Shown here: in pieces, positions 6,590-40,574 of the stretch | Position numbering within the stretch: the stretch's first letter is position 1 | Layout: each line of letters opens with the position of its first letter | Assembly: GCA_965217095.1 (NCBI GenBank) | Contig: OZ244235.1 | Span: 4,488,175-4,552,174 of the forward strand | Direction of reading: 5' to 3' | DNA: 64,000 bases | Origin: Candidatus Latescibacterota bacterium | Lineage (GTDB): Bacteria; Latescibacterota; UBA2968; UBA8231 | Notes under the pieces: generated by a model | What the model was told of the DNA's origin: nothing | What the model saw: the letters and a program-made list of their open reading frames with translations, nothing else | Database searches by the model: none | Translations under genes and position numbers: made by a program

Positions 6590-8499
6590 GTGCGCCACGA
6601 GGCGCCAGAGAACCGGGTGGGATGCAAGGACCCACCAACGGGCTGTCGCAGCAGCCTCGACAACGACAGAGTGGAGTGGCACCTTCAGACACTCCACGTC
6701 TGGCAAGCAAGACGGAATGGTGTAACCCGAAGTGAACCAATGATGGAACCCCCTTTAGCGGCCCGCCAACCCAAACCTGGTGGATAAGGGTTGGTACGCA
6801 ACGCACGTGGTCGGATATATGACCCGACTGCGACTCTGGGGAGGTGTGATACCCACCGAAGCAGAGGCCTTGGAGAATGCCTGCGGCGTACCCAAGGCGA
6901 AGTTGCGGGGGAAAAGCTGGGCACCTCCCCCGTCAAACGGTTCATGGTGAACGTGGGAACCGAGCCGAGTCCGACCGTTATCGGAGCAGCGCGCTGTCCG
7001 CTGTGGGGTTTGGCAAGGGGCGGAGCCTCTGTAGTAGTCCGCGAGCGGGAAAGCCGCTTACATGGCGAAGGGAGGCAGCAAGTTGCGCAGTGGGGTACTG
7101 GAAAAACAGGAGGACGCCGGTGAATGCCAGCGCTTCGTGGCCCGAGGCAGAACAAGCCCGTAATCGAGTACTGGAAATCCAGACCAAACTGCACCGTTGG
7201 GCTGTAGAGGATCGAAGCAAGTGCTTCGACGACCTGTTCAACCTGGTGTGTGACCCGGCGTTTTTGAGTGTAGCCTGGCGTCGGGTGCGCAGCAACAAGG
7301 GTGCTCGTTCGGCCGGAGTGGACGGACAAACGGCCTACTCTGTGGAGACGGAACGCGGCGAGGAGACCTTTCTCGCCGAGGTGCAGGTTGATCTGAAGAC
7401 CCGCAGTTTCCGGCCTCTGCCCGTACGCGAGCGGTTGATTCCGAAGCCTGGCACAACGAAGAAGCGTCGGCTCGGCATCCCAACCGCTCGGGACCGAGTG
7501 GTCCAAGCAGCACTCAAGCTGGTGCTCGAACCGATCTTCGAGGCGGACTTCAAGCCGTGCTCCTACGGCTTCCGCCCGAATCGGCGGGCTCAGGACGCCA
7601 TCGCCGAGATTCATCAATTCTGCTCCCGCTCTTATGAGTGGGTGGTGGAGGGCGATATCCGTGCTTGTTTCGATGAGATTGATCACGCAGCCCTCTTGGG
7701 CCGCGTGCGTCGACGTATCGGTGATAAGCATGTTCTGAGGCTTGTAAAAGCGTTCTGCAAGGCCGGTGTCCTCACGGAACAATCGGTGTTGCAAGAAAGC
7801 ACTTCGGGCACTCCGCAAGGCGGTATTCTCTCACCGCTGGTGGCGGGCACCGAAGCTGCAGCGTATGACCTGCGCGACCAAACGGGGGTGACTCTCACCC
7901 CCATGGGTCTGCACCTGTCGGAGACGAAGACCGCCATCATGCACATTAGCCGTGGCTTCGATTTCCTGGGCTTTCGCATTCAGAAGCGACGGAAACCGGG
8001 CACGGTTGGCGCACGCATCTATACGTGGCCAAGAAAGGAATCTCTGGCCCGGTTGAAGAGCACGGTGCGCGCAGTCACGAGAACGGGTCGGCAGAGGCCG
8101 TTGAAGAGCCTTCTGGGCCAACTACTTTCACAGTACGGGGTGTCGAAGGCCACTTTCAACTACGTGCGGGGCTTCACTTGGCGCCGCGTAGTGCATTGGC
8201 TGCGCCGCAAGCACCCGCGCTTTAATTGGAGGAAGCTGAAACGCCGCTACCTGCCAGGATGGTGGCCCACCGAGGACGGGATTGCTCTTTACAACGTCGG
8301 CGAAGTAGCAGTGACTCGTTACCGCTATCGATCGGCGCGGATCCCTTCTCCCTGGCCTGCGACAACCGGATGAGACTCTGCGGTCACACGGCACCTTGTG
8401 GAGAGCCGGATGCGTGGTAACGCGCACGTCCGGTTCGGAGGGCGGGCCGGAGAAACCCACATCACGCGTGTGGCGCAGGGCGCTCCGGTCCGACCCTAC
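6590..8499 (+). mobile_element. Group II intron, copy 1 (1910 bp). Inserted in the IS256 transposase ORF between the codons for WADGI and YFNV.
   Basis: 5' GTGCG at 6590. Domain V GAGCCGGATGCGTGGTAACGCGCACGTCCGGTTC at ~8405-8440. 3' end …CGACCCTAC at 8499. Splicing in silico restores a canonical IS256 transposase junction (WADGI-YFNVRLQ). It encodes a reverse transcriptase/maturase. Confidence 0.8.
7120..8373 (+). CDS. Group II intron-encoded reverse transcriptase/maturase (IEP), copy 1. It reads through, but a 29-nt deletion relative to copy 2 removes the domain-X LNPVLRGWANYF motif, so it is probably non-functional as a maturase.
   Basis: RBS AGGAGGA then GTG at 7120. RLGIPTARDRVVQAALKLVLEPIFEADFKPCSYGFRP, SGTPQGGILSPL and YSVETERGE RT motifs. 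Copy 2 has LLRQLNPVLRGWANYFHSTG where copy 1 has LLGQLLSQYG. Confidence 0.65.
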   Translation: MNASASWPEAEQARNRVLEIQTKLHRWAVEDRSKCFDDLFNLVCDPAFLSVAWRRVRSNKGARSAGVDGQTAYSVETERGEETFLAEVQVDLKTRSFRPLPVRERLIPKPGTTKKRRLGIPTARDRVVQAALKLVLEPIFEADFKPCSYGFRPNRRAQDAIAEIHQFCSRSYEWVVEGDIRACFDEIDHAALLGRVRRRIGDKHVLRLVKAFCKAGVLTEQSVLQESTSGTPQGGILSPLVAGTEAAAYDLRDQTGVTLTPMGLHLSETKTAIMHISRGFDFLGFRIQKRRKPGTVGARIYTWPRKESLARLKSTVRAVTRTGRQRPLKSLLGQLLSQYGVSKATFNYVRGFTWRRVVHWLRRKHPRFNWRKLKRRYLPGWWPTEDGIALYNVGEVAVTRYRYRSARIPSPWPATTG

Positions 8500-8769
8500 T
8501 ACTTCAATGTGCGCCTGCAGAAAGATCGCCCTTGCGTGCTGGTCGTGGTCGGCGCCACCGAGGACGGCCACAAGGAGCTGTTGGCAATCCAGGACGGCGA
8601 GCGAGAAAGCCATCTCAGCTGGCTGCACCTGCTGCAGGACCTGAAGGCTCGAGGCCTGAAAGAGCACTCCTTCCTGGCCGGCGCCGACGGCGCGTCAGGT
8701 TTCTGGAAGGCTCTGGAGGAGGCGTTGCCTGGTGCCCGCGCCCAGCAGTGTTGGGTGCATAAGACGGCC

Positions 8770-9902
8770 TGGGGATATCCATTTAACCGGAGTGCGTCGC
8801 GACCCCCATCAGTGTTCGGCCGCCGACCGCCACGGCCGGTTTGCCCCTGGGCGTTCCAGGCTCGTGGGATGCCCTCGCCGTTTGGGCGGCTCGGGGGGCG
8901 GCTTCCTCGGCCGTCGGCTGGCAATGAGATCCTGGAAACGCATCGGCTCGTGGGCCACGGCCAGCTCGAGCACGCGATAAAACACCATGCCGCGGCTGCG
9001 GGAGCGGCGGCGATTGAAGCGGAACACGAACTCGTTGAGGTAGTGGCTCATGTGGGTACTGTCGGCGGCCCCTTGATGCGTTCCCAGCAGCCACCGCTTG
9101 GCCAGTGAGACAACGCGGTGCACGGCGGGCAACAGCTTGTTGGGATCATCGCCCCGAGCGCGGGCCGCGCCCTGGCTGCGCCGATCGTGCTCGTAGCCGA
9201 GCTGAGCCAGTCCCTGATAAGCGGGCCACCCGTCGGTGATGATCGTCGAGCCCGGCTCGACGTGATCCATCACGAACGCGTGCAAGGTCTCGGCAGAGGC
9301 ATCGGCCAGTGGCGACATGCGGCACCGCCCCAATCCTCTCGGCTCATGAACCTCAACTGCGATACCGGTCAGCACCTTCTTGCCCCTAAGCGCGGCCACC
9401 GGCCAGCCCAGGCTCGGCGCCGCCGATGTAGGTCTCGTCCACCTGTACCGTCCCGCTCAACAGATCCCGACCGGGACGTACCAACACCGACCGCAGGCGG
9501 TGCGGCATGGCCCAGGCAGTCTGGTAGGAGCTGATCTCCAGTACTCGCTTCAAGCTCAACGCCGAGATCCCGTCTTTACCGGTGGCGAACAGCCAGCAGG
9601 CGGTGTACCATATCGTCAAGGGTGTCCGCGTCCGATCGAAGATCGTACCGGCCGTCACCGAACTGCGTGTCGAACACGCCGGACACATGAAGCGCCCATC
9701 GCCCAAGCGCCAACCGCCTTCGTGGCCGCAACTCGGACAGACGAAGCCGTCGGGCCACCGCAGCCATTCGAGGTAGTCCAGGCAGTCCGCATCGGTTCGA
9801 AACCAGGCTTGAAACTCGCCAACCGAGCCCGGGTAGTGCTTGCCAGCGCGAGGATACGCCATGCACTGAACATATGGTAACTCCGGTTAAATGGATACCC
9901 CC
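8770..9902 (-). mobile_element. IS1595-family insertion sequence (~1.13 kb) inserted into the IS256 copy-A transposase gene. 9-bp target-site duplication AAGACGGCC (8761-8769 and 9903-9911). Terminal inverted repeats TGGGGATATCCATTTAACCGGAG and CTCCGGTTAAATGGATACCCCC.
   Basis: Inverted repeats and direct repeat read from the sequence. The transposase is in two frames (9386..9862 and 8809..9399): N-terminal zinc ribbon CPSCGHEGGWRLGDGRFMCPAC…VQVDETYIGG, then C-terminal IITDGWPAYQGL…YLNEFVFRFNRR. One frameshift near 9390. Confidence 0.7.
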
Positions 9903-10447
9903 AAGACGGCCAATGTCCTCGACAAGCTGTCCCAGCGGGTGCGCCTTGATGCCAAGAGTCTGTTGCACGAGATGTACCTGGCGCCCGCCCGAGAGGATGC
10001 CCTGGCGGCCTACGACCGCTTCCTGGGCCGCTGCCAGGACAAATATCCCCAGGCCTGCGAGTGTCTGCGCCAGGACCGCGACGAGATGTTTGCCTTCTAC
10101 GATTTCCCGGCCGCCCATTGGGTGCACCTGCGAACGACCAACCCGATCGAATCGACCTTCGCCACGGTCCGCCATCGCACGCGCCAGACCAAAGCCTGTG
10201 GCTCACGCGTCACGGCTTTGACCATGGTCTTCAAACTGGCAACCCAGGCCGAAAGGCACTGGCGTCGTCTCAACAGCTATCAACGCATCACCCATCTCGT
10301 CGATGGCGACACCTTCACCGACGGTGAACTGCAACTCAAAAAAGCCGCATGGAAATCAGCCACGGTCGCCCGGATACGCTCTCTTCCGCGGCCCCGTCAC
10401 GCCATGGACAAACGACCTTCATCCACAACATTTGACAATATCTCTGA

Positions 10448-10893
10448 GAATGGGTTTTGGGGGTGGAATAAAGCTAGAATTTCATGGTGCAAAGGTGACC
10501 TCTGACAGTGGTCTTTTAGCGTATCGTGAACGTGATGATGCGCGGGGATTATTCGATGCCGTGTCGACGGCTTTATCGGACCCACGTACTGGCCGTAACA
10601 TCCAACATGCGATGGCTACCTTATTACGCCGATCCATCTATAGCCGTCTTGCGGGGTATGAAGATGTCAATGACGCCGAGCGTCTCTCGGTTGATCCTGT
10701 CATGAGAGCGATCACCGGGAAAAGGGCGCCCAACAAACAGGCCGCCAGCGTCAACACGATGGGGCGTTTTGAAACGGAGATACTGACTCGGCAAGAGCAT
10801 CTCAGAAACTTGTCAGATATCAATGGCAAGTGGGTTCAAAAAGCGAGGGGGAAAAACGAATTCCTTGCCGAGATCAAAGGCATATTGCCCTGA
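10448..10893 (+). pseudogene. IS1380/IS4-like DDE transposase, N-terminal ~148 aa only. It starts inside the IS256 right inverted repeat.
   Basis: IKLEFHGAKVTSDSGLLAYRE…NIQHAMATLLRRSIYSRLAGYEDVNDAERLSVDP, characteristic of IS1380-family transposase N-termini. Truncated; full length is ~450 aa. Confidence 0.4.
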
Positions 10894-11287
10894 CAGTACT
10901 TGGAGCGCTGTCCAAATTTCATAGCTGCGTGTGGCGATATCCATGGTTACGGGTTCGATGCGGACGAAGCCCTGGGTGACTTGCCAGGGGGGGTGGAAAG
11001 TAATAAAAAGTTGGTTTCCGCCAAACCGTCCGCCGGCCAGAACACTTGTAAGCAATTGTCATGGAGTCGCCCAAAAAAGACAGTCAGACGGCAATCCGTC
11101 TGACAGCATGCGAGCCGCCCGGGCAGAATCCACAGAATGTGGGATCAAGAATTGGCGGTACCGGCCCGGAAAAACCCAAGATCCAGTGAGTTTGCAGGCC
11201 ATTCGAAAGGAAAATAATGCGAATTGAGGCTAATATCTGGTTGGCATCGGCATCCACCCGGAAGACACAGCATGGCCAGTCACGCCG

Positions 11288-11482
11288 TCATGTCCGGCGA
11301 GAGCCTGCCCCTGGTCGGCAAAGCTGCTCGGGCACCGACGCCATCGCACGACGGCAGGCTACGCCCACCTCCTCGCTCTCATGGTCGAATACCATCCGAA
11401 CCGCCCGCTCGCGTACCTCGGGGGAATACCTGTGTCGTTGTGCCATGACTCCAATCCTCTCAAGAAAAGGAGTCTCCGGCAA
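11288..11482 (-). pseudogene. IS3-family (IS6110/IS51-like) orfA N-terminal remnant.
   Basis: QRHRYSPEVRERAVRMVFDHESEE resembles IS3-family OrfA (…RRYPPELRERAVRMV…). Only ~60 aa, then degenerate. Confidence 0.3.
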
Positions 11483-11552
11483 GTCCGGGGAGATTCACTC
11501 CTTCATGTGAAGCGCTCGACACGAATGACTGCTGTTTTGTGGCTTGAAGAGA

Positions 11553-12530
11553 CTATGGCTGAGAGGACCATGGGATTTCCACGGTGTAGTGCCAGATACG
11601 GGAGACTCCGAGGCTAGTCTGTCGATCGTGCGTGGCGCAGATCGGGTAGAGCATGCTGACAGGAAGACCGTAGCACTCCGTCAGATAGAAGATCGTAAAT
11701 CCCAGAGCCTGAGCTTTCGTCGCCAGAGGACAGATATACATATTAGAGAACCTATGCTCCTTGGCTATTTCACTTAGCACGCCGGCTGTGATGAACGGGT
11801 CATAGGCCGGGGCAAAGAAGTTGCCAGGTCTATTCCCCACATCGACTCCTACGATCTCAGAAGCGCGGTACGCCCTCAGCACGTTCTCTTGGTACATCTC
11901 CGCTCTGAGTGATGGAAGACCAAACAGCATCAACTTGCGGGAGTTTTTTTTGTAGTCTGCGACCTGTGCTATGAGTTCGTCATCGTACCCTGCCCCGATG
12001 ATGAGCAGGTCGTTCGACGTATCAGCAGTGTGAAGGCCCTCGAACCCCACGACTTGGCGGACTTCCTTGACGACTGCATCTGAGAAGCGAGTCTCTTCCT
12101 TTCTGGCGTAGTAGGCCGGCTCAGCGAAAAGGACGTCAAATTTCTCCAGGCCGAGTTCCAGCAACCATCTTAATAGGAACATCATATACGGTTTGACAAA
12201 ACCGGTTATGTCTATACATACCCTATTGCCACTGACGTCATCGATGCCTGCCGAAGCGAAGCACTGCTTGATGAACTCTGCCTCGTCGGAACAAGGAATA
12301 GCATGGCATTGTCCACTTGGATGCTCGTGGTCGGCGTATTTATAGTCCGGGAGCATCAGCCAATGCTTGGAATCAGCGCGCACGTTGTCATATACCGTTT
12401 GGACTCTTTCACTAGAGTTGTATGCAGAAATGAACAAGTCCCAGTCCAGTTGCCACTGGGACTGCGGATCAAGATTACCCTTGTAGTAGATCGAGTAGTC
12501 AGCCATCGAAGAGATCTTTCTGCTCATCAC
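11553..12530 (-). CDS. Hypothetical protein (325 aa). Fourth and last gene of the lower-GC MTase–NTPase operon. Rossmann-like stretch NDLLIIGAGYDDELIAQVADY.
   Basis: Coherent, non-low-complexity ORF. Its start overlaps the stop of the upstream NTPase gene. GC is lower than the surrounding sequence. Confidence 0.55.
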   Translation of the reverse strand: MMSRKISSMADYSIYYKGNLDPQSQWQLDWDLFISAYNSSERVQTVYDNVRADSKHWLMLPDYKYADHEHPSGQCHAIPCSDEAEFIKQCFASAGIDDVSGNRVCIDITGFVKPYMMFLLRWLLELGLEKFDVLFAEPAYYARKEETRFSDAVVKEVRQVVGFEGLHTADTSNDLLIIGAGYDDELIAQVADYKKNSRKLMLFGLPSLRAEMYQENVLRAYRASEIVGVDVGNRPGNFFAPAYDPFITAGVLSEIAKEHRFSNMYICPLATKAQALGFTIFYLTECYGLPVSMLYPICATHDRQTSLGVSRIWHYTVEIPWSSQP

Positions 12531-14538
12531 CCGGCGTTGTCGTGGGCCTCTTCTCGATGCGCCGTCCGAACTCAGGAGCCGTCATCCTATCCACCCGCGA
12601 GGCCAAAACTTCGGGAAAACGATCACTGTGTGTTTCGTCAAATATGGCGTCTGCTTCGGAGGCTTTGAGAGCGATTGCCCCCCTCCGCGAAATTGGGAGA
12701 TCCCATCGCGGTGCGAGCATGGGAACGAGCTGAAGTTTCGCATCCACCCGGGGAGTGTTCCTGTCCTTCTGTCCTCCTGACACATCCACGAGGAGCGACC
12801 AGCTTATCGCGAGGTGGATGTTAGAGCGGCTGCGCTCTGAGATGCTTGCCAAATCGACGGAGAAGGCACACAGAGAGCACTCCGATGGCTTGTCTGAGAA
12901 CCGAATTGCTCTGAACAGTGTAGCTAGACGCTCCACACCCTTTAGAACCTCAGGAGATCTAGCACCAGGAACTCTGGCGTCGCGGTAAAACCACTCCGAT
13001 GCCTCACGCACCCCCTCAGTCTGTGTGGCATGGCCCATCTGTGTCGATGAGTAAGGATCCTCACCGTTGAAGATCGCCCAGCGATGTGTGTGCTTAAGAA
13101 TCGTGAGTAATGCACGCGGTAGCCCACAGGACATGTCAACGAAGGTCTTGAACCCAAGATACCTTTGGGGTAGCTGGAGTTCGCGCAGCAATTGGGCGAT
13201 TAGGTCCCTTTTGAAGTGGGCCAGGGCATGGTGATGTCGGCCCTTCGAGCCTGTGTCGTCGCGGTAGGCGTGTGCGCTAATAGCTATTTCACGGGCGGAT
13301 TCGCGCAGGTCCCTGTTGGCACTCCAATCCTTGTATAGCAAAAAAGTGCTAGTCTTCTCCAATAGGGGAGCCCCCGCTATGCGCAGTGCATCAATCACCA
13401 TGTCAGCGTCTCTAGCCTCAGTGAGACCCGGAGCTATCTGGAGCTCAATTCCTCTTAATAGCTTATCCCTCAGGGCCTCGAAGTACGGCTGCCTATCGGG
13501 CAAGCGTGTTGTACCGGTACCTTGTGCATCCCACCCACTTCCGGGCAAATAGAAGAGTCCCATGGCATCGACAGGATCTTCTTGCATTGGAGTGGGCAAA
13601 GCGACTCCAGACTTGAGAAGCCGTCTTGTGCAGAGCATTGCGGCAAACTTAGCGTAATTGGGCCTTTTTCTGACTCGATCGTCCAGCCGCATCTCCTCGA
13701 ACTCAGATCCCTCTCTGTTGACCTCTTCCGCACTCAATGTTTCGTACGTCCTGATTCCGTATCTCCGGGCACCTACTCTGAATGAACAGGGGGCCTCCCG
13801 CTCTCGGATTAGCGTGTTGACGTATCTCTGATGGTTAGCGGTTAGGTTCTCTAACTCGTCAATCAGGTATAAGAAAAGCACAGACTGGAGTCCGGGTATC
13901 TCCTCCGCCAGTATCTGCGGCACGCCATACACGAGTCGTCCAGGGCTAGAGAGGATCCTTGAGTTTATCTTGCCGGTGATAGGGGCGTTATTGACGGCCA
14001 AGTCGAGCTCCCGCTGCAGCGACTGAAATGCGGAGAGCAGCTCGGACAGGGCCTTGGGCTCCTGACCAAGCGGAGCATCGAAGCACGTGCCAATTATGCG
14101 GGAGACGATCCGCTCCTCCTGCAAATCAGTCTCAGTTTCTACTAGGGCCTCAGCTACCGCAGCAACGACGAGCTGAGAGAGCCACAGGTCGCTGTAATAA
14201 GCGAACAAGCTTGCCCATGCCTCATCTGAAAGCCCACGTCCAGAGAATCTGCTCGCATTCAAGCCCGTACACCGTAGATAGATTCCGATATATCCCTCTT
14301 TCGCGATGCCCTGTAACGCTGAGTCATGGCACCGCAGCCTCTGTAGGGGGAAAGAGAAGTATCGCATCAGGTGGGTCTTACCGCTTCCCTTGCCCCCGAG
14401 CAGCAGCATCGGCATCGGGGAGGTAGGCTTGAGGAACTCCTCGAATCCGCCTCCTGGCATGTCTACCCAGTAGTCATGGATCTGCTCGTCCGAGAAATCG
14501 ACTGCTTGAGTGACATTGAATGGATTGTCAACGCGCAT
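12499..14538 (-). CDS. P-loop NTPase (679 aa) with widely spaced Walker A and Walker B motifs, reminiscent of ABC/AAA_15-21-type or ORC-like defence ATPases.
   Basis: Walker A LLLGGKGSGKTHLMRY near aa 48. Walker B LFLYLIDELENL near aa 240. Translationally coupled to both neighbouring genes. Confidence 0.6.
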   Translation of the reverse strand: MRVDNPFNVTQAVDFSDEQIHDYWVDMPGGGFEEFLKPTSPMPMLLLGGKGSGKTHLMRYFSFPLQRLRCHDSALQGIAKEGYIGIYLRCTGLNASRFSGRGLSDEAWASLFAYYSDLWLSQLVVAAVAEALVETETDLQEERIVSRIIGTCFDAPLGQEPKALSELLSAFQSLQRELDLAVNNAPITGKINSRILSSPGRLVYGVPQILAEEIPGLQSVLFLYLIDELENLTANHQRYVNTLIREREAPCSFRVGARRYGIRTYETLSAEEVNREGSEFEEMRLDDRVRKRPNYAKFAAMLCTRRLLKSGVALPTPMQEDPVDAMGLFYLPGSGWDAQGTGTTRLPDRQPYFEALRDKLLRGIELQIAPGLTEARDADMVIDALRIAGAPLLEKTSTFLLYKDWSANRDLRESAREIAISAHAYRDDTGSKGRHHHALAHFKRDLIAQLLRELQLPQRYLGFKTFVDMSCGLPRALLTILKHTHRWAIFNGEDPYSSTQMGHATQTEGVREASEWFYRDARVPGARSPEVLKGVERLATLFRAIRFSDKPSECSLCAFSVDLASISERSRSNIHLAISWSLLVDVSGGQKDRNTPRVDAKLQLVPMLAPRWDLPISRRGAIALKASEADAIFDETHSDRFPEVLASRVDRMTAPEFGRRIEKRPTTTPGDEQKDLFDG

Positions 14539-15494
14539 CAGGGAGTGAACTCCATCTTTGGGTACCTCCGGAAGATAGGTACCCAGGGTTTATCTTCTTC
14601 ATCGTACCAGAAGATCGGAAGCGTGTTATCTGGCGTGTTGTGATGGAAGCCGAGGAGTAGCTGTCCGTTTTCAAATCCTAGGGCGTCGTCATCGGTGAAA
14701 AGGTCACTGCCGTACTTTCGACACATAGCCTCGGTTCGCTGACGGTCGACCATGGAAGAGGCTGCAGGGAAGTACCGAGACACTTGGCCAAAGCATTTGT
14801 AGGAAGAATCCAGTACATGAATAGCCCTAACCTCATCAAACAGGCTGTTGGCGATGATATTGTCACGCCCCTCCTCGGTTGCGAACAGGAGGTGGTAATC
14901 GACCGTGGCATCTGGGTTGGCGTGCTTAAGATCGGCCAATACTTCCTCGGAGTATGTGACTGCCTGTGTTCCACTTCCACAGAAGTCATCAATGAACACA
15001 TAATGCGAAACATCAGGGAATCGGACTTCTGCGACGCCCTGAGAACCGTACCGCCGGAACACCTCGTGCGTATGCACGAATAGCTCCTTTGGTAGTCGGT
15101 TCTCCTGTCGATAGTAGTAAAGGAGATGGCACCCGCTCTCCGACGGATTTCCCATTCCTAGGAATCTCGTTCTCTGCAGCTCATACTCATACTTCCCATC
15201 CAGGAAGGAGACGTCGACTGTGTTTGCGTTCTGACGTCGAGCGCTCTGCACGATCGGATACTTGTAAAGATCTCTGTGCATCGCTTGCAGTAACTCGCGC
15301 ACCTCGTGGCTACCAAAGTACATGAACTGGCTGAGCAAGAAGAGTGCGTGAAAGCGTTCACCCGGTTCGTTGGGGAGATCAGCAGAGAAATTGCTTAGCC
15401 ATTCAGTGATGCTGTTCTGAGTTGCTCTGTCTTCCCAAACGGTCTCGTTCAGAATCTTCAGCTTCCGCCTCAGGTCCTCGACATATGAGTCCAC
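14538..15494 (-). CDS. Hypothetical protein (318 aa) with a phosphoribosyltransferase-like / MTase-motif-I-like signature (YVFIDDFCGSGTQA).
   Basis: hhhhDD-x-CGSGT resembles the PRTase PRPP-binding loop. It also mirrors the DPFCGSGT motif I of the upstream MTase. Its start overlaps the NTPase gene. Confidence 0.5.
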   Translation of the reverse strand: MDSYVEDLRRKLKILNETVWEDRATQNSITEWLSNFSADLPNEPGERFHALFLLSQFMYFGSHEVRELLQAMHRDLYKYPIVQSARRQNANTVDVSFLDGKYEYELQRTRFLGMGNPSESGCHLLYYYRQENRLPKELFVHTHEVFRRYGSQGVAEVRFPDVSHYVFIDDFCGSGTQAVTYSEEVLADLKHANPDATVDYHLLFATEEGRDNIIANSLFDEVRAIHVLDSSYKCFGQVSRYFPAASSMVDRQRTEAMCRKYGSDLFTDDDALGFENGQLLLGFHHNTPDNTLPIFWYDEEDKPWVPIFRRYPKMEFTP

Positions 15495-15506
15495 GCTCTA
15501 TCGCCC

Positions 15507-16874
15507 TTACCCTTTCTGGTATACGGCTGTGAGCTCAACTGGAATCAGTGCGGCGGTGTGATTGCGCTTCGTCATGAGTTGGCGAGATCGGATCTTGTTC
15601 TCAAAAACACATGCGAGGTCAAAGCCCAGCGATTCCGCTATCTCACGGATGTACTCTGTGGCGCGGAAGCGGCGACCACAGACCAGGTTATCGCCCAGTG
15701 TCAGGACCAGATGGCCACCGGGACGCAGAACTCTCCACGCCTCCTGCAGGCTTGTTCGCATCTCGCGCAGAAAACTTCCGGCAATGTGGGCTCGCAGGGG
15801 GTACTCGGTATACACCTGAGCCAGCAGGTCATCGGCTGATACGACACCTGTTGGCAGGAAGCTCTCCAATTCTGATGTAGGGTAGTGCTCACAGCCGATA
15901 GTCTTCGACTCAAGTTTTCGCAAGCCACTGGAAGCGGCGAGGTCCAGCCATCCGAGGCTGAGGCTAGTAGACCTCACATATTTCTGAGCCCCCGCGTAGG
16001 GCGGCGAGGTGAGGATAAGGTCCACGGCTTCATCCGAGAGACGACCCGTTCCATTGGTTGAGAAAGGAGCTGGGAAGTGCAATTGTCGAGCATCCACAGA
16101 GATGTGACACGGCGGCGGGTTTGGAAGGACTCGGTAGAGTGCCGCCATTCGCTTGAGGTTGACCTCTACACACCGCCGGAACACTCCAAAGACATTGACG
16201 CGACGCAATTGGCGAATGTGACGATCAGTCCTTTCGCGCAAAGGATGCGCGGGAGGGTACTGTCCTTCGCGAAGCCTAACGGGCACCGAGAGCCGTGGAT
16301 CCGCAAGGCTGGTCTTTCGAGCGCAGGACGAAAATGCAACCTGAAAGAAGCGAATGTATGCATCACTCCGGAGCGACATGATACCCTCACGGATCCTGCA
16401 GAGCTGGCGAATCACATGCGGATGGTACCAGTAGTCGATGTTGACCACATCGGGTAGAGGCTGTGTGGCACGGTCGGGGATGTTCCGTTGCAGACAATTA
16501 AATGATCTCCTTAACGCCGAGGGAGACAGTGGCTGTGTCTTCGCGGCTGCCATTAGCCGGGCGAACGGGTTCGTGTCGGAGCCTAGAGCAGGTCTTCCGG
16601 AGAGTAAGGCTTCGAGGAGCACGGTCCCGGAACCACAGAAAGGGTCCAGCACGACACCCCCAGGCGGGCAAACCTCTGGGCACTTGAGAAAGAAGTGCGG
16701 GACATGTACGAGTAGTTTGGCCGGATAGGGGTGTAGGAGATGCGTATACCTGTCAGGCGACCGAAGACCGTCAACGGCTGACCGGAAATCAAAGGGCACA
16801 GGACTGCCCTCTGTCCTGTACTGCTCGACAGCGTTACGGAGTAGCTGATTTGTGCTGGGGCAAGGATCAGCCAT
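15507..16874 (-). CDS. DNA methyltransferase (N6A or N4C), alpha-like motif order X–I–TRD–IV. First gene of the four-gene operon.
   Basis: HPYPAKLLVHVPHFF (motif X-like). GVVLDPFCGSGTVLLEALLSG…SDTNP (motif I). VDLILTSPPYAGAQKY (motif IV, SPPY). Confidence 0.65.
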   Translation of the reverse strand: MADPCPSTNQLLRNAVEQYRTEGSPVPFDFRSAVDGLRSPDRYTHLLHPYPAKLLVHVPHFFLKCPEVCPPGGVVLDPFCGSGTVLLEALLSGRPALGSDTNPFARLMAAAKTQPLSPSALRRSFNCLQRNIPDRATQPLPDVVNIDYWYHPHVIRQLCRIREGIMSLRSDAYIRFFQVAFSSCARKTSLADPRLSVPVRLREGQYPPAHPLRERTDRHIRQLRRVNVFGVFRRCVEVNLKRMAALYRVLPNPPPCHISVDARQLHFPAPFSTNGTGRLSDEAVDLILTSPPYAGAQKYVRSTSLSLGWLDLAASSGLRKLESKTIGCEHYPTSELESFLPTGVVSADDLLAQVYTEYPLRAHIAGSFLREMRTSLQEAWRVLRPGGHLVLTLGDNLVCGRRFRATEYIREIAESLGFDLACVFENKIRSRQLMTKRNHTAALIPVELTAVYQKG

Positions 16875-16948
16875 CGCTCTCGTAAGAATGGGTCAGCCAA
16901 GGATACATAGTGACGGTGTCTGTCCGATGCGGCAATTCGACATTCGGA

Positions 16949-20864: not shown

Positions 20865-21365
20865 ATCATCAGCTTAAATAGTGGTGCGAGGGACTTTGAG
20901 ATCCCCCGCACCAGAGGTCCAATTCACCCCCAAACCAAGGGAAATAGCAAATTGGAACCTCATATTCCAGACATATGACTACCTCGATTAGCCGATGCAA
21001 TAGTCAAAGACTTTTGTAGGGAGGAGTGGTAGAAAGCTAGTACATTCCAAGTCCAACGAAAGAGGCAGCGAAGAACCACTGCCCTGCCGCTCTCCCACTT
21101 CCCCGACAGAGAGACGGTTACAAATAGAACCTTGGAATCCTAGTAGGGACATCAATGTCCGCCACTCCTCCCATATTTACCAACCCTCGCTTTAAGGAAC
21201 GCTTGAAGCAGCAAGTACTTGGATTTCAGTCTTGGTCGGTCAGAGTTCAAACAAAACAATCCAAGCGAGTTGTCCGAAGAATAAAATAGAGACAGTATAT
21301 CCACCCTCCCATAAAAGCGCGTTACCGGCGCAGAGGGGGTTAAAGGATATACCGTCTCTTCTATA

Positions 21366-21899: not shown

Positions 21900-21964
21900 T
21901 CCGGCAGTTTCTTACCACCCGTTTCGGCATCAGCCCCAAAAGTGGAAACTTTGGACCGAAATGG

Positions 21965-23107: not shown

Positions 23108-23235
23108 GTGAAGTAAACACGGCTAATCCGACGTTTGAGCTCAACGGCGGCGAGGAGGAGGGCCACTGGATCTCAGTGTCCGATCTGATGGCCGGACTGA
23201 TGATGGTGTTTCTTTTTATCGGGTGTAGGTTCTGA
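23104..23235 (+). pseudogene. MotB/ZorB-like N-terminus (43 aa), truncated by the ISKra4-like insertion.
   Basis: GHWISVSDLMAGLMMVFLFI resembles the MotB/ZorB plug-TM segment (W..tyaDlmT.L..fF). The ORF stops just before the IS. Confidence 0.35.
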
Positions 23236-23254
23236 TTTACGTATTTGTGCATAA

Positions 23255-24795: not shown

Positions 24796-25244
24796 ACAGA
24801 TGAAAAACGGATATCTACCCACCTCGAATGCCGACGGCTTGCCTATCGTTCCGATGACGGCGGCGCAAAAGTACCCCTCAGATACGATCCGGAGTATTTG
24901 ACCGTCTAAACCGCACGCCGAGGTTCATCAGTGCCACGGGTCCTCGGAAGCGAGCCTTCCCGAAGTGGTTCGGTAGATGAGCAAGAAACTGAAAGCGCCC
25001 TACTACTCCTACTGGTTCGCGTGAGGCGCGGGCGGAGCCAGGTAGTCTGACCAGAGTCACTTTCCTTCCTGCAAGTTTTGAAATGGATCAATATAGAAAA
25101 GCCGCGTACCAGGTCCTTGAAGCCGCTGATCTCCCTCGCGTCGATCGCGTAATCAGGCAACGCAATTAACGCTTTAAGGCTTGACAATCACCCCCTTATT
25201 GGTTATCTTAAGGATGAGAAAAACAACCAAATAAGGGGCGGAGC

Positions 25245-26126
25245 ATGAACTTGATAACCGTAACAGAAAGATTTCCGACGCAGGAATCCTGCATCGCCCA
25301 TTTGGAGCTGGTTCGCTTCGGCGATGAGCCCTTTTGCCCCTTGTGCGGCACGGTCGGGGAGTGCGCCCGCAAGCGTGAAGGGTCGAAGATCGGGCGCTGG
25401 AACTGTCACGCCTGTAAATCCAGCTTCAACGTCTTATCCAAGACGATGTTTCAGGGAACACATCTTCCCTTGCAGAAGTGGTTCTGCGCCATCGCCCTGA
25501 TCGTGAACGCCAAGAAAAGCCTGTCCAGTTGCCAGCTTGCACGTGACTTGAACCTGAATCAGGGGTCCGCCTGGTACATGCAGCAACGCATCCGGGCCGA
25601 GATGGCTACCAAGCAGGGAAGGATCAGGTTAAGTGGAATCATCGAAGCCGACGAGACCTATGTCGGCGGACGCCCCAGGAAGCGCAATAAGCACGATGAC
25701 GACAAGCCCAACCCCAGAGGACGAGGAACACGCAAGACCGCTGTTATCGGCGCTGTGGAGCGTTCTGGGAAGGTTGTGGCCGAAGTCGCCGACGATCTCT
25801 CGGGCAAGGGCGTGCTCGCCTTTATCAAGCGCGCCATCGATCCTGACACCTCGACGCTGGTCACGGACGAATACGGGGCCTATAACGTGGTGCGGCGGAT
25901 CATGGATCACTGCGTGATTCAGCATTCCGAGCGCTATGTCGATGGCAGTATTCATACCAATACGATAGAAGGCGTCTGGTCCCTGCTCAAGCGCGCCTGG
26001 TATGGATCACATCATCACTACACGAGACAATACACGCCGCTTTACGTGGCCGAAGCGTGCTACAAGTACAATCACCGCGGCACCGACAATGGCTTCGAGG
26101 CGTTCCTGCACGGATGCTTCAAGTAG
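25245..26126 (+). CDS. IS1595-family transposase (293 aa), intact.
   Basis: Zinc ribbon CPLCG…CHACK. IEADETYVGG. LVTDEYGAYNVV. HTNTIEGVWSLLKRAWYGSHHHY. Confidence 0.75.
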   Translation: MNLITVTERFPTQESCIAHLELVRFGDEPFCPLCGTVGECARKREGSKIGRWNCHACKSSFNVLSKTMFQGTHLPLQKWFCAIALIVNAKKSLSSCQLARDLNLNQGSAWYMQQRIRAEMATKQGRIRLSGIIEADETYVGGRPRKRNKHDDDKPNPRGRGTRKTAVIGAVERSGKVVAEVADDLSGKGVLAFIKRAIDPDTSTLVTDEYGAYNVVRRIMDHCVIQHSERYVDGSIHTNTIEGVWSLLKRAWYGSHHHYTRQYTPLYVAEACYKYNHRGTDNGFEAFLHGCFK

Positions 26127-26137
26127 GAGCGCTTGTT

Positions 26138-26581
26138 CTACAGGAGGTCGTACTCCTCATCGGCGGTCACTACGACAAAATCCAAAATGTCTTTTGTTGG
26201 ACAGTAGTTCATGTCCCATCGCCTCAAAACATCACGCCCCAAAAGAGATGGGACCTCTATGAGATCGTCATTACAGTTTGCAGATATCCATAGTTCAATT
26301 TCGTACTTGTAAACCTTCGCCTTTTCAGAAAAATAGACGTGTGCCGGTTCAAGAAATGAACTGGATTTACCGCCTAAGCCTAGAGCGGACGCCTTTTTTT
26401 GGAATCCCGCAGACTGTAAGTTTATGCCTATCCTCTTACGATCTGCTGGCATTAACATGGTAGTGTCTGCGCCAGTATCTACCAAGAAAGAAATGTCGCT
26501 TACGATCCCAAGTCTTGGAATATGCAGCCGCGCCTCTACATAGGGAGCATTTGTGGTATCGCCGTAACGACCTTGTAGCAT
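26138..26581 (-). CDS. Retropepsin-like (clan AA) aspartic protease (147 aa), a passenger of the IS1595 unit.
   Basis: FLVDTGADTTMLMPADRKRIGI (DTGA catalytic motif). Confidence 0.6.
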   Translation of the reverse strand: MLQGRYGDTTNAPYVEARLHIPRLGIVSDISFLVDTGADTTMLMPADRKRIGINLQSAGFQKKASALGLGGKSSSFLEPAHVYFSEKAKVYKYEIELWISANCNDDLIEVPSLLGRDVLRRWDMNYCPTKDILDFVVVTADEEYDLL

Positions 26582-26859
26582 TACAAAATCATAGTCTTGG
26601 GTTCGGGGTCAACGTATCGAATGATAGATTGTTCGCGTGAAAACCCGTCGCAATCTAGCTTTTCGAGTACAGCCTGAAATGTTGGTTCGTGAGCCCTGAC
26701 ATGGCCTGTGCATATGGCAACCCACTCCTTGGGATACTGTTCGACCAAACGTGGATCACTAGAAGACAGACACTTTACGGACTCGCGAAAGGAGTCTAAT
26801 TCATTGGCAATTTCCCTAGGGTCGATTTGCCCCATATCTAAATCTTTAGTCATTATCAC
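26581..26859 (-). CDS. Small hypothetical protein (92 aa) translationally coupled to the aspartic protease gene. Possibly a DUF5678-like partner.
   Basis: Stop/start overlap at 26581. KEWVAICTGHVRAHEPTF motif. Confidence 0.45.
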   Translation of the reverse strand: MIMTKDLDMGQIDPREIANELDSFRESVKCLSSSDPRLVEQYPKEWVAICTGHVRAHEPTFQAVLEKLDCDGFSREQSIIRYVDPEPKTMIL

Positions 26860-27023
26860 CCCTCTTCTTATTGAGGATCTCCTGGAAAGTTTCGTATGAC
26901 ACCCCTTCCAGTTCTATCGGAATAATATAAAACATTCTGACCCTTCATCACGGATAGCGCGCAGGATGGACATTTGGGGGTCTTGCAGCGCGTGTTTTCT
27001 GCCTCAGCCTCGGGTGCCTATTT

Positions 27024-27398
27024 ATGTGTTATACTATAGGACAGGATAGGACAGGTCAAAAAGTTGCGGTCATGCGCCAGAATCAACGATGCCCATCAGA
27101 TAGTGTGATAGACCCCAACGTCGAGGCAATTGTGCGGGGATTGCAAAAAAACAACATCCACACTTTCGAGTCTTGCCAGGGCGGAGAAGGGCATTCCTTT
27201 CATGAGCCTACGGTGAGGTTTAGCGGAGGGCCAGCCGAGGGATATAGGGCCGTAGCATTGGCGATGACATATGGGTGGCCCATAACTGGCCTGAGGCGTT
27301 ATTGGACAGTACTTCGAGGAACTAATGAATTGGACGGGCCGAGATGGGAAATGACTTTCAATTCCGTTTTGCTCCCGGCCCTCCCAATTCCCGACTAG
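27024..27398 (+). CDS. Hypothetical protein (124 aa). Start uncertain.
   Basis: Coherent ORF inside the IS1595-bounded unit. Confidence 0.35.
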   Translation: MCYTIGQDRTGQKVAVMRQNQRCPSDSVIDPNVEAIVRGLQKNNIHTFESCQGGEGHSFHEPTVRFSGGPAEGYRAVALAMTYGWPITGLRRYWTVLRGTNELDGPRWEMTFNSVLLPALPIPD

Positions 27399-27404
27399 CA
27401 GGTG

Positions 27405-27565
27405 TCGTTGTCGATTAGGCGTTGGCATTCATCGCAAAGGCGTTTATTGCCGTCTCCCTCGCGGCGATTTTCCCGTTCGATATTATTCCCAGTATTGCAG
27501 TTCGTGCAAACGTGGTAAACATCTGCCAGCACTGAATGCCATGCTGAAGTTCTTGTCAAAATCAT
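27405..27565 (-). CDS. Small Cys-rich (4-Cys zinc-ribbon-like) protein, ~53 aa. Not in the ORF track (<60 aa).
   Basis: Reverse-complement translation MILTRTSAWHSVLADVYHVCTNCNTGNNIERENRREGDGNKRLCDECQRLIDNDTC. Confidence 0.25.
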
Positions 27566-27689
27566 CACCCCCTTTCTGGTACGGACCTTTTATTTGGATG
27601 TAGTATTGCTCCAGGTGCAGGTTGTATACCGCCTCTTGAATGTGGATGCAGCCGATCCCGGAATCGCACCCGGCCAGAAGTCAAGCGCA

Positions 27690-28298
27690 CTAATTCTTCG
27701 GACGGACATACGACCCACGACAGGTTTCGGCCCGGGGATCATATGTGACTGCATATTCCATAGGCTGCCACGCTCCGAAGCCGTTTTGAAATTTAACCTT
27801 ATTGCCATGATATCGTATTTTGCCGGTTTTTTTGTCCGCCCATCCGAATTGACCGAATTTGGTTTCATACCAAGAATCTGTCCATTTATGGTCGTATTGG
27901 GCATATGATTCTACGATATCACTACACCGAACGGACGCAGCAATCGAGTGTTTGTCGCCCCAGCATCGAAGGTCCTGGCGACACTTTTCCTCCCCAACTT
28001 TTTTGGTCGATGGGCCTGCCCGCAGGGATGGGCCGTCCTGCGGCCGGGTCGATGGGCCGGACGGCGGGCTGTTCGCCCGCGGATTGCCGTCGGTGGGACG
28101 TGGCGGCGGGAATCTGCTCATACCGTTGGGCAGCGGATCTTCTTCGTCGTTTCCTGCTATCATCCCAATGATGCACATTCCCATCACAAGACAAAGTCCT
28201 ACTCCTGCGATATTTAGGCAGCCTCCCACGTTGTTGTGCCCTCCTCGACTGGCATTCTCTGCCGCCGAAAGTGGCGGTCGGGTGGTGTCCCCAGACAC
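27690..28298 (-). CDS. Membrane-anchored protein with a Pro-rich linker and a C-terminal globular domain. Passenger gene.
   Basis: TM segment VGGCLNIAGVGLCLVMGMCIIGMIAG. Linker PPPRPTDGNPRANSPPSGPS. C-terminal domain WTDSWYETKFGQFGWADKKTGKIRYHGNKVKF. Confidence 0.45.
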   Translation of the reverse strand: MSGDTTRPPLSAAENASRGGHNNVGGCLNIAGVGLCLVMGMCIIGMIAGNDEEDPLPNGMSRFPPPRPTDGNPRANSPPSGPSTRPQDGPSLRAGPSTKKVGEEKCRQDLRCWGDKHSIAASVRCSDIVESYAQYDHKWTDSWYETKFGQFGWADKKTGKIRYHGNKVKFQNGFGAWQPMEYAVTYDPRAETCRGSYVRPKN

Positions 28299-29168
28299 GA
28301 CAGGGTAAAGATGGTTTGTTATGTGGGAAAGTCAAGCCTTAAAGCGTTAATTGCGAAAGTTTTTGGACAGCAAGCCCCTGAAGTCAGGGGCGAACAATCA
28401 CTATCGGCCGGCACGATGGTTCACAGAACATATCGACGACGTATGGCCAAAATTTGATATAGATACCAAGGAGCGCTTTGAAAAAGTATTTGTGAAGGTT
28501 AACTCGCTACTTTAGTACGGAATGAACCGGCAAGCGAGCTACCATTAATAGGTGTGGAAAAAGAGAAAGGGCGACCCTAACCTTCCTTTATAGAAGTCCA
28601 TCAACAACCGCCCGGTTGGCGCCGGGCATGGAAGGAGAGAGTCGCCATGAGAGAATCTACACTGGAATCCGCAGACTTGTCTATGCCGACGTGGGATACG
28701 CTGGAAGGCTGGGCTCGCTCGTCGATCCAATCGCTGTTGCAGCAGGTGCTGGAGGAGGAAGTGACGCAGCTACTGGGCCGTACGCGCTACGAGCGCCGGA
28801 CTTCAGTGGACGACAACTCGGGCTCGCGCAACGGACATGGCAAGCCTCGACGGCTGGCGTTGATGTCGGGCACCATCGAGGTGAAACGGCCTCGGGTTCG
28901 TGGACTGGAGGAGCGCTTTGAGAGCCGAATCCTGCCGCTGTTTATGCGCCGTACGAAGTCGGTGACCCAGTTGCTGCCCGAGCTCTACCTGCACGGACTG
29001 TCTCAGGGGGACTTCGAGCTGGCGCTGCGCGGCCTGCTGGGAGCGGGAGCGCCGCTGTCGCCGTCCTCTATCGCGCGTTTGCGGAATAAGTGGATCGTCG
29101 AATACCACGCCTGGCGCACGCGACGGCTGGATGACCGCGAGTTGGTGTACGCCTGGGCGGACGGGATC

Positions 29169-31107
29169 GTGCGCCACGAGGCGCCAGAGAACCGGGTGGG
29201 ATGCAAGGACCCACCAACGGGCTGTCGCAGCAGCCTCGACAACGACAGAGTGGAGTGGCACCTTCAGACACTCCACGTCTGGCAAGCAAGACGGAATGGT
29301 GTAACCCGAAGTGAACCAATGATGGAACCCCCTTTAGCGGCCCGCCAACCCAAACCTGGTGGATAAGGGTTGGTACGCAACGCACGTGGTCGGATATATG
29401 ACCCGACTGCGACTCTGGGGAGGTGTGATACCCACCGAAGCAGAGGCCTTGGAGAATGCCTGCGGCGTACCCAAGGCGAAGTTGCGGGGGAAAAGCTGGG
29501 CACCTCCCCCGTCAAACGGTTCATGGTGAACGTGGGAACCGAGCCGAGTCCGACCGTTATCGGGGCAGCGCGCTGTCCGCTGTGGGGCTTGGCAAGGGAC
29601 GGAGCCTCTGTAGTAGTCCGCGAGCGGGAAAGCCGCTTACATGGCGAAGGGAGGCAGCAAGTTGCGCAGTGGGGTACTGGAAAAACAGGAGGACGCCGGT
29701 GAATGCCAGCGCTTCGTGGCCCGAGGCAGAACAAGCCCGTAATCGAGTACTGGAAATCCAGACCAAACTGCACCGTTGGGCTGTAGAGGATCGAAGCAAG
29801 TGCTTCGACGACCTGTTCAACCTGGTGTGTGACCCGGCGTTTTTGAGTGTAGCCTGGCGTCGGGTGCGCAGCAACAAGGGTGCTCGTTCGGCCGGAGTGG
29901 ACGGACAAACGGCCTACTCTGTGGAGACGGAACGCGGCGAGGAGGCCTTTCTCGCCGAGGTGCGGGTTGATCTGAAGACCCGCAGTTTCCGGCCTCTGCC
30001 CGTACGCGAGCGGTTGATTCCGAAACCTGGCACAACGAAGAAGCGCCGGCTCGGCATCCCAACCGCTCGGGACCGAGTGGTCCAAGCAGCACTCAAGCTG
30101 GTGCTCGAACCGATCTTCGAAGCGGACTTCAAGCCGTGCTCCTACGGCTTCCGCCCGAATCGGCGGGCTCAGGACGCCATCGCCGAGATTCATCAATTCT
30201 GCTCCCGCTCTTATGAGTGGGTGGTGGAGGGCGATATCCGTGCTTGTTTCGATGAGATTGATCACGCAGCCCTCTTGGGCCGCGTGCGTCGACGTATCGG
30301 TGATAAGCATGTTCTGAGGCTTGTAAAAGCGTTCTGCAAGGCCGGTGTCCTCACGGAACAATCGGTGTTGCAAGAAAGCACTTCGGGCACTCCGCAAGGC
30401 GGTATTCTCTCACCGCTGGTGGCGGGCACCGAAGCTGCAGCGTATGACCTGCGCGACCAAACGGGGGTGACTCTCACCCCCATGGGTCTGCACCTGTCGG
30501 AGACGAAGACCGCCATCATGCACATTAGCCGTGGCTTCGATTTCCTGGGCTTTCGCATTCAGAAGCGACGGAAACCGGGCACGGTTGGCGCACGCATCTA
30601 TACGTGGCCAAGAAAGGAATCTCTGGCCCGGTTGAAGAGCACGGTGCGCGCAGTCACGAGAACGGGTCGGCAGAGGCCGTTGAAGAGCCTTCTGCGCCAA
30701 CTCAATCCGGTGTTGCGGGGGTGGGCCAACTACTTTCACAGTACGGGGTGTCGAAGGCCACTTTCAACTACGTGCGGGGCTTCACTTGGCGCCGCGTAGT
30801 GCATTGGCTGCGCCGCAAGCACCCGCGCTTTAATTGGAGGAAGCTGAAACGCCGCTACCTGCCAGGATGGTGGCCCACCGAGGACGGGATTGCTCTTTAC
30901 AACGTCGGCGAAGTAGCAGTGACTCGTTACCGCTATCGATCGGCGCGGATCCCTTCTCCCTGGCTTGCGACAACCGGATGAGACTCTGCGGTCACACGGC
31001 ACCTTGTGGAGAGCCGGATGCGTGGTAACGCGCACGTCCGGTTCGGAGGGCGGGCCGGAGAAACCCACATCACGCGTGTGGCGCAGGGCGCTCCGGTCCG
31101 ACCCTAC
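29169..31107 (+). mobile_element. Group II intron, copy 2 (1939 bp). Near-identical to copy 1 but retains the 29 nt that copy 1 lacks.
   Basis: 5' GTGCG at 29169. Identical domain V/VI. 3' …ACCCTAC at 31107. Flanked by WADGI / YVKAGLE transposase codons. Confidence 0.8.
29699..30981 (+). pseudogene. Intron-encoded RT/maturase, copy 2. The LNPVLRGWANYFHSTG domain-X motif is present, followed by a -1 frameshift in a G-run.
   Basis: ORF 29456..30799 stops after GWANYFHSTGCRRPL…. The remaining C-terminus (VSKATFNYVRGFTWRRVVHWLRRKHP…) is in ORF 30604..30981. Confidence 0.6.

Positions 31108-40481: not shown

Positions 40482-40574
<93 letters not shown>

Follow-up and report, generated by a model that had tools for sequence, protein, structure and literature searches.

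Two probable decay products of one mobile group II intron family at the same site of two different IS256-family transposase genes

The 64-kb stretch of Candidatus Latescibacterota DNA considered here (hereafter the window, with positions counted from its first letter) contains two near-identical group II introns, each of which interrupts the transposase gene of an insertion sequence (IS) of the IS256 family. Copy 1 (6590..8499, plus strand, 1910 nucleotides (nt)) lies inside transposase 1 of the first IS and copy 2 (29169..31107, plus strand, 1939 nt) inside transposase 2 of the second. The two copies share the same orientation at a distance of 22.6 kb and are 99.5% identical, the differences being nine substitutions and a deletion of 29 nt in copy 1. 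One question then is how two introns that are so alike, and so alike in their damage, came to occupy two different hosts. From the sequence and that of its relatives we consider it very probable that the window holds two decayed, non-autonomous copies of one mobile intron family.

The introns and their host insertion sequences

Both introns begin with GTGCG (at 6590 and 29169) and end with CCCTAC (at 8499 and 31107) in a common ...CCGACCCTAC 3' end, so that the group II consensus of 5' GUGYG and 3' AY coincides exactly with the insertion limits, and beyond the intron the copies remain similar for about 15 nt on the upstream side and 8 nt on the downstream side. Domains V and VI are recognised in both copies over the full length of the Rfam model RF00029 with 57.3 bits (gathering score 40), at 8403..8499 on the plus strand in copy 1, where domain V occupies 8403-8436, and with domain V at 31011-31044, also on the plus strand, in copy 2. 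Domain V is canonical, has 34 nt and carries the AGC triad; domain VI then follows, with a presumed branch A 7 nt from the intron 3' end, within CCG-A-CCCUAC. The 64-kb window contains no third intron copy and no other intron-type reverse transcriptase (RT).

The first IS (5918..10444, plus strand) holds both copy 1 and a nested element of the IS1595 family, without which it would measure about 1.48 kb. It is bounded by terminal inverted repeats of 24 nt (5918-5941 and 10421-10444, 92% complementary) and by a 9-bp target duplication, TGAGAATGG, at 5909-5917 and 10445-10453. Exon 1 of transposase 1 (6074..6589, plus strand) reads MDHGAIARG...YLWADGI; the first part of exon 2 (8500..8769, plus strand) reads YFNVRLQ...CWVHKTA, and its second part (9903..10444, plus strand; ..NVLDKLSQRV...) covers positions 259-377 of the Pfam profile Transposase_mut. 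The terminal open reading frame (ORF) continues through the right inverted repeat to 10505, the Transposase_mut match spanning 9891-10505. We rejected a truncation of transposase 1 at 8768, since the nested IS1595-family element (8770..9902, minus strand; Pfam Zn_ribbon_IS1595 and DDE_Tnp_IS1595) interrupts the gene, which resumes at 9903. This element has inverted repeats GGGGATATCCATTTAACCGGAGT and a flanking duplication AAGACGGCC, and its own transposase is broken into two ORFs (9386-9862 and 8809-9399). In exon 1 there is, in addition, a probable pair of compensating +1 and -1 frameshifts at about 6413-6460; on restoring GVSTSAFPEALQAILGDGV the score against the transposase type of the second IS rises from 275 to 288 bits and the gaps fall from 13 to 5.

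The second IS (28536..31874, plus strand) is a distinct IS256-family element of 1400 nt without its intron, with inverted repeats of 25 nt (28536-28560 and 31850-31874) and an 8-bp target duplication, CGGCAAGC, at 28528-28535 and 31875-31882. Transposase 2 comprises exon 1 (28647..29168, plus strand; MRESTLES...YAWADGI) and exon 2 (31108..31844, plus strand; YVKAGLEK...), in which a 1-nt deletion near 31410, relative to the intact gene described below, leads to a stop at 31426. In spliced reconstruction both proteins match Transposase_mut, transposase 1 with E = 5.5e-35 (exons as read, shortened by the nested IS) and transposase 2 with E = 7.1e-61 (frameshift repaired). Thus both elements possess the inverted repeats and the target duplication of 8-9 bp of the IS256 family, and neither retains an uninterrupted transposase ORF. 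The spliced proteins share 42% identity, and in both the intron splits the homologous residues WADGI/Y, where the slash here and below marks the insertion point. An initial annotation of this DNA had reported near-identical introns at this very point of two transposase genes and had taken the hosts for different IS256-family elements, not for one duplicated IS; on both counts the comparison bears it out. As read, both host genes are broken independently of the intron, by the nested IS1595-family element in one case and by the 1-nt frameshift in the other, and the proposal that transposase expression depends on splicing assisted in trans is consequently moot.

An uninterrupted counterpart of the second host is available. 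A metagenome contig (L090) carries an intron-less allele of the same IS type, collinear with the second IS over L090:6793-8193, with an intact gene of 419 amino acids (aa) at L090:6904-8163. Its uninterrupted junction, GCCTGGGCCGACGGCATC/TACGTC, falls exactly at the splice point predicted for the window (...GGCATC/TACGTC). In the encoded protein D172 (WADGI), D236 (MADGA) and E343 (NPVES) have the DDE spacing of the IS256 family, and CWNHK at 257 corresponds to the C(2)H signature that follows the second Asp in Mutator-type transposases (PMC3942029). On this motif spacing the intron would lie two codons past the presumed first catalytic Asp.

The intact element and the lesions of the window copies

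A protein search retrieved P0003, a protein of 476 aa, which outside the gaps is about 99% identical to that of the window and which carries the segment LVANIAL...RYADDFVL. The intact intron has 2141 nt (L001:4417-6557). The domains of P0003 are RVT_1 and GIIM only; the protein ends about 70 aa past domain X and is without an endonuclease domain. CBDAOB01, a metagenome-assembled genome (MAG) of Candidatus Latescibacterota, contains at least nine full-length copies with 99.7-99.9% identity to the reference copy. In the comparison by which the initial annotation had proposed to assign the intron to a class, the Rfam class-specific models of D1-D4 gave no match, even with the full-length intron, and the closest solved structures are distant (E = 9e-55 to 2e-49). 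These structures, 6ME0 (T.el4h maturase/RT), 5G2X (LtrA) and 6AR1 (GsI-IIC RT), have homologous RT and maturase domains, but belong to other classes and carry no information on IS targeting. One further full-length intron (L002:3246-6557, ENA ERZ25067264) has itself received 1200 nt at intron position 386; this insert, with a gene for a Transposase_mut protein of 336 aa (L002:3718-4728), is an IS256-family element inside the intron, the order of nesting being reversed.

Relative to the intact 2141-nt element the ribozyme of both window copies lacks 55 nt of domain I, between 7-nt repeats AGCAGCC, one of which is retained (6650..6656, plus strand, in copy 1). In 14 relatives the region forms a hairpin of three tiers and 13 pairs with many compensatory changes. 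The deletion takes all 13 pairs together with three pairs of the preceding hairpin, so that the domain I scaffold, which has this region in the full-length relatives, is incomplete in both window copies. Since a conserved, covarying hairpin is removed, the ribozyme is probably impaired as well as the protein, and both window copies probably splice poorly.

The damage to the intron-encoded protein is of several kinds. Both copies share an in-frame deletion of 150 nt between 9-nt repeats GCTGGTGGC (junctions on the plus strand at 7836-7844 in copy 1 and 30415-30423 in copy 2), which removes 50 residues, LVANIAL...RYADDFVL, including the YADD active site of the RT. They likewise share a CA duplication that converts TTTCAG to TTTCACAG (8129-8132 and 30737-30740) and shifts the frame within domain X, and one extra C (29402 in copy 2). 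Copy 1 has in addition lost 29 nt at about 8114-8123, between repeats TG[C/G]GCCAACT. Together with the +2 insertion this amounts to a net change of -27 nt, which reopens the frame at the expense of the domain X motif RQLNPVLRGWANYF. All three deletions (55, 150 and 29 nt) are accordingly flanked by direct repeats. What remains in copy 1 is an open frame of 417 aa with a GTG start (7120..8373, plus strand), devoid of YADD and of RQLNPVLRGWANYF; in copy 2 the gene (29699..30981, plus strand) is open over 29699-30799, shifted at 30737-30740, and continues in another frame to 30981 with its C-terminal part. Neither protein matches RVT_1 beyond profile positions 1-129 of 205, and neither possesses a complete RT and domain X. 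On this reading neither window copy can make a functional protein.

The initial annotation was right that both maturases are defective and that the 29-nt deletion restores the frame of copy 1 while eliminating RQLNPVLRGWANYF. The defects are, on comparison with the intact element, larger and of a different kind, the 150-nt loss of YADD and the 55-nt loss in domain I having been missed. Its shared -1 frameshift in a run of G has to be given up, since the GGGG in question is the same in the intact relative and the lesion is the CA duplication just upstream.

Because the locus appears to encode no functional intron protein and both host genes are independently broken, we read it as a stack of dead nested mobile elements and not as a regulated system.

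Target recognition and the origin of the shared defects

The pairings by which a group II intron recognises its target can be assigned for both exon-binding sites (EBS) with their intron-binding sites (IBS) in the 5' exon. EBS1 (GATACC) occupies a hairpin loop at 6848-6853 and 29427-29432 and pairs with positions -6 to -1, while EBS2 (CGGCCC), at 6759-6764 and 29338-29343, pairs with positions -14 to -9. The corresponding targets are GG(G/A)ATC and GGGC(C/G)G, each of which departs from perfect pairing at one position in the window; for example, the exon of copy 1 has GGAATC at -6 to -1, mismatched at -4, and GGGCGG at -14 to -9, mismatched at -10. A strict search of the intron for 6-7-mer complements of the 5' exon found no EBS1. 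It was located through ectopic sites, two of which have GGTATC and GGTATT at -6 to -1, those with GGTATC pairing perfectly with EBS1, and through covariation in relatives. The latter was assessed in a blind complementarity scan of 50 related introns with differing 5' exons, the expectation being obtained by permutation: complementarity to -6 to -1 peaks at the EBS1 loop (19 of the 50 against 1.8 expected) and complementarity to -14 to -9 at the EBS2 sequence CGGCCC (27 against 4.2). The EBS2 region (CGGCCCGCCAACCCAA; 6759-6774 and 29338-29353) shows, in addition, 81% complementarity across 16 nt with the 5' strand of domain VI (TTCGGAGGGCGGGCCG; 8434-8449 and 31042-31057, respectively), which could be chance or could reflect an intramolecular pairing that masks EBS2.

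Besides the paired positions, certain bases of the 5' exon are largely fixed among the same 50 relatives: T-15 in 46, G-14 in 36, G-13 in 32, A-8 in 37 and C-7 in 35. T-15, A-8 and C-7 are probably fixed because the protein reads them or because RNA structure demands them. In these relatives (L015-L085) the fixed positions T-15, G-14, G-13, A-8 and C-7 often read as the codons of Trp-x-Asp, a coincidence that may explain why the introns land on DDE active-site motifs.

The distribution of occupied sites agrees with this picture. The same intron stands at WADGI/Y in several IS256-family subtypes, whose proteins are 66-72% identical to the type of the second IS, and the same WADG(I/V)/(Y/H) site is home to introns of 56-60% protein identity in a Gemmatimonadota MAG (L015), in an Actinomycetes MAG (L028, L029 and L032) and in Acrocarpospora (L052; Actinomycetota), so that three phyla in all are represented. 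Together with the intron-less allele in L090 these occurrences support the view that the intron homes to DNA encoding W-A-D-G-I/Y in differing IS256 members, as the initial annotation had suggested from the window alone. Its further claim of an intron that specifically parasitises an IS family holds for the several IS256 subtypes and fails as a strict rule: in the MAG CBDAOB01 four of the nine copies occupy ectopic, non-IS sites, and site specificity is not absolute. At one ectopic site (L009:2414-4554, CBDAOB010000004.1) the interrupted gene, a non-transposase gene of 400 aa, encodes ...FRNDWSADGI/YMLLRGEHG, which by its sequence is a protein-motif mimic of the IS256 homing site.

A coherent course of events can be proposed. 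The intact element would retrohome into the sense strand of IS256-family transposase genes, between the Ile and the Tyr of W-A-D-G-I/Y, with EBS1, EBS2 and the fixed bases reading nucleotides that encode conserved residues; and because the recognised nucleotides encode such residues, even diverged IS256 members would all offer the site. The window copies would descend from a derivative that had lost the RT active site through the 150-nt deletion between the 9-nt repeats and that then gained the CA duplication, by which domain X was frameshifted. Such RT-less copies with an intact ribozyme could have spread to several IS types with protein supplied in trans by full-length copies, after which the 55-nt deletion and a few substitutions would have passed between the neighbouring copies by gene conversion, copy 1 having lost a further 29 nt.

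The decay series and the distribution of markers were analysed in 16 intron copies, including both window copies. From the full-length form the series leads to the 150-nt deletion (P0001 and P0002; L004 and L005), then to the addition of the CA duplication (L090; P0005) and of the 29-nt deletion (L086 and L087; P0004), the 55-nt deletion being present in the two window copies only. The 150-nt deletion occurs in seven copies across several IS contexts and the CA duplication in five, from independent assemblies, and intact copies are present in the related MAG and, in one shared sample, alongside defective ones. The two window copies have private markers in common over positions 61-1165, namely the 55-nt deletion, the extra C, A372G and A1165G. 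Elsewhere copy 1 shares its markers with other copies: those at 450, 474 and 485 with L090, those at 850 and 1007 with L004 and L005, and the 29-nt deletion with L086 and L087. In a four-gamete test 82 of 253 informative character pairs are incompatible, and because the markers reticulate in this way, the intron copies recombine or the repeat-flanked deletions recur. Near-identity of the two copies alone does not, then, prove the retrohoming of one defective intron, and we infer from the marker pattern that gene conversion as well as trans mobilisation explains the shared defects.

The most serious competitor, which we nevertheless judge unlikely, is that a single intron, in which the CA duplication and both the 55-nt and the 150-nt deletion were already present, reached the second IS by mobilisation in trans, no gene conversion being involved. 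The four private markers common to both copies speak in its favour, as do the copies with the 150-nt deletion and the CA duplication at several other sites and the intact helpers in related genomes. However, the 55-nt deletion takes a conserved hairpin of domain I and makes reverse splicing doubtful, and the markers that copy 1 has in common with L090, with L004 and L005 and with L086 and L087 would require many parallel changes. Moreover, exact scans of JGI metagenome contigs gave no match for the 55-nt deletion junction, and none for the intron 5' end, so that no other copy with this deletion was found in those contigs. Movement of the 55-nt-deletion form itself is less likely than gene conversion.

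It is also conceivable, though highly improbable, that the RT-less protein is a retained 'maturase-only' factor and that the copies are still spliced, such that expression of the IS is gated by the intron. An RT-less ORF of 426 aa with a whole domain X does exist elsewhere (P0001 and P0002), and RmInt1, an IS-targeting intron discussed below, has been proposed to limit the spread of its host IS (PMC5894124); but in the window copy 2 has a frameshift in domain X and copy 1 is missing the core motif of that domain, domain I is truncated, and downstream of the intron neither transposase gene is intact.

Still harder to credit is the notion that the defects are errors of sequencing or assembly and that the intron-encoded protein is really intact. 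The related contigs look like long-read assemblies, in which small homopolymer indels such as the extra C of the intron or the 1-nt deletion of transposase 2 are plausible, but the 150-nt deletion and the CA duplication recur among independent assemblies with the frequencies given above, proteins matching each defective form are recorded from other samples, and both window copies show the 55-nt deletion. Finally, a joint duplication of one IS with its intron, segmental or replicative, to which the 99.5% identity, common orientation and 22.6-kb spacing of the introns might point, is refuted by the flank comparison and virtually excluded, because the flanking DNA loses its similarity within 15 nt on one side of the intron and 8 nt on the other, the transposases share 42% identity, and the inverted repeats and target duplications differ.

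Several points weigh against the interpretation that we prefer, that of IS256-homing introns mobilised in trans and subsequently homogenised by gene conversion. An intact helper copy in the genome of the window is an assumption, 64 kb being the part of that genome seen, and the 16 copies fit either trans mobilisation with gene conversion thereafter or separate insertions homogenised at a later time. Both IS targets mismatch EBS1 at -4 and, in the window, EBS2 at -10. The derivation of the exon-binding sites proposed in the initial annotation succeeded for EBS1 and EBS2, which could be paired with the target; EBS3 was not found, convincing covariation with position +1 being absent from every column in 17 relatives. 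That the WADGI Asp is catalytic is deduced from motif spacing (D172/D236/E343) and the IS256 literature. Similarly, the transposase 2 indel near 31410, the frameshift pair of transposase 1 and the extra C of the intron could be long-read assembly errors. The single-base changes of the host genes are changes of homopolymer length; the nested IS cannot be an assembly error.

Known systems, the wider clade and the surrounding region

The closest functional precedent is RmInt1 of Sinorhizobium meliloti, which has no endonuclease domain and homes to ISRm2011-2, of the IS630 family, and to related ISs (PMC5894124, PMC4496777, PMC4075523). Its target, which has been defined by experiment, has a critical T-15, with EBS2 pairing at about -13 to -9 and EBS1 at about -7 to -1 (PMC4075523); occasional ectopic sites mimic the IBS, and copies are eroded by point mutations and deletions (PMC5894124, PMC4496777, PMC4075523). 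Relatives of RmInt1 also reside in ISs, for example RmInt2 in ISRm17. The intron family of the window resembles RmInt1 in its RT-maturase without an endonuclease domain, in a home inside an IS transposase gene, in T-15 with an IBS2 starting from -9 and an IBS1 extending to -1, in ectopic sites that mimic the IBS, and in the decay of copies by mutation and deletion. It differs in that the host IS is IS256/Mutator and not IS630, with the insertion beside the codon of the presumed first catalytic Asp, and in that the hosts are Latescibacterota, Actinomycetota and Gemmatimonadota, the nearest relatives being actinobacterial. The family would thus work in a manner analogous to RmInt1, an analogy of function and not an assignment to class D.

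Two other comparisons are instructive. Natural ORF-less group II introns (Simon et al. 2008, as cited in PMC5894124) and the engineered, ORF-deleted introns of targetron design, all moved by a protein provided in trans, recall the RT-lacking copies that stand at several distinct sites with the same internal deletion, beside intact relatives. In the window, however, only part of the ORF has gone (50 aa, with YADD among them) and the ribozyme is damaged too, and mobilisation in trans is our interpretation. Likewise, group g1 consists of intron ORFs without an endonuclease domain, including the actinobacterial Ca.ac.I1 and Rh.js.I1 (Toro and Martinez-Abarca 2013, PMC3552965); the absence of that domain and a C-terminal extension past domain X are likenesses by description, which we offer as a literature lead.

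The homing of one mobile element into another is real and fairly ordinary, being already known for RmInt1, and the window alone speaks to the biology of dead nested mobile DNA. Full-text literature searching yielded no description of IS256-family transposases as the homing target of a group II intron. What the family would add is a natural intron homed on a conserved, presumed catalytic-site coding stretch of these transposases, with a record that covers the intact element, the empty site, ectopic sites and graded decay products. Alongside RmInt1 it would offer another, independent case in which introns may restrain IS elements. The insertion of such introns explains split 'transposase' gene calls in genomes of this kind, and a worked EBS/IBS rule for an endonuclease-less lineage in high-GC hosts could interest targetron engineers.

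Relatives at 53-61% protein identity are mostly actinobacterial, and about 560 relatives occur in GTDB genomes. Two further sites lie in IS256-type genes, one at ...WSTNP/ (L019) and one near residue 220 (L037 and L058). An identification of the hosts of L037, L058 and L068 as IS21 was rejected, their 3' exons aligning to residues 221-344 of the IS256 type. Other relatives interrupt genes of IS110, IS66, ISL3 and IS1380-like elements, as supported by Pfam, and, read by eye, probable IS30- and IS630-type hosts. It is tempting to suppose that the endonuclease-less clade (protein identity of at least about 53%) diversified by specialising in the parasitism of transposase genes across many IS families, a possibility that we regard as rather doubtful on the sequences at hand. 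The coincidence of T-15 G-14 G-13 ... A-8 C-7 with the Trp-x-Asp codons of DDE active-site strands would in that case have pre-adapted the lineage, with EBS1 and EBS2 serving to retarget it. If true and undescribed, this would amount to a 'hyperparasite' rule at the level of a lineage.

Some members of the clade deserve separate mention. Six introns (L018, L020, L021, L022, L056 and L076) have the common 5' exon CTGGAT..GAC TTC / TCGTCGAT, which, judged by eye, is the reverse complement of the IS630-type motif ...IDE/KSQIQA, that is, DEKSQIQA. Because these insertions are antisense, splicing of the IS630 transposase mRNA could never remove them. In L072 (5' ends at 488 and 1200) an intron is nested in an intron-encoded protein at ...RRFDDLF/NLV, and at L016:126 an intron stands directly past the RYADDF codons of a reverse transcriptase.

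The surroundings of the two introns are likewise a pile-up of mobile elements. A DDE_Tnp_1_4 transposase fragment (10303-10893, plus strand) comes right after the right end of the first IS, an rve_3 integrase-core ORF (31792-32493, minus strand) adjoins the right end of the second, and a second IS1595-type gene, intact-looking and of 293 aa, lies at 25245-26126. Between the intron copies, on the minus strand, the block 11553-16874 encodes an ORC-CDC6-like ATPase (PF24389, E = 1.6e-124), a PRTase-CE protein (PF24390, E = 3.4e-63) and a DNA methylase domain protein, contents that suggest a conflict or defence-type module within an island rich in ISs. Further downstream there are three direct repeats of about 137 nt (34481-34988; 64-85% identity, spacings of 245 and 126 nt) and two adjacent tRNA genes on the minus strand (40486-40574 and 40608-40691; Rfam RF00005, 57.6 and 50.7 bits).

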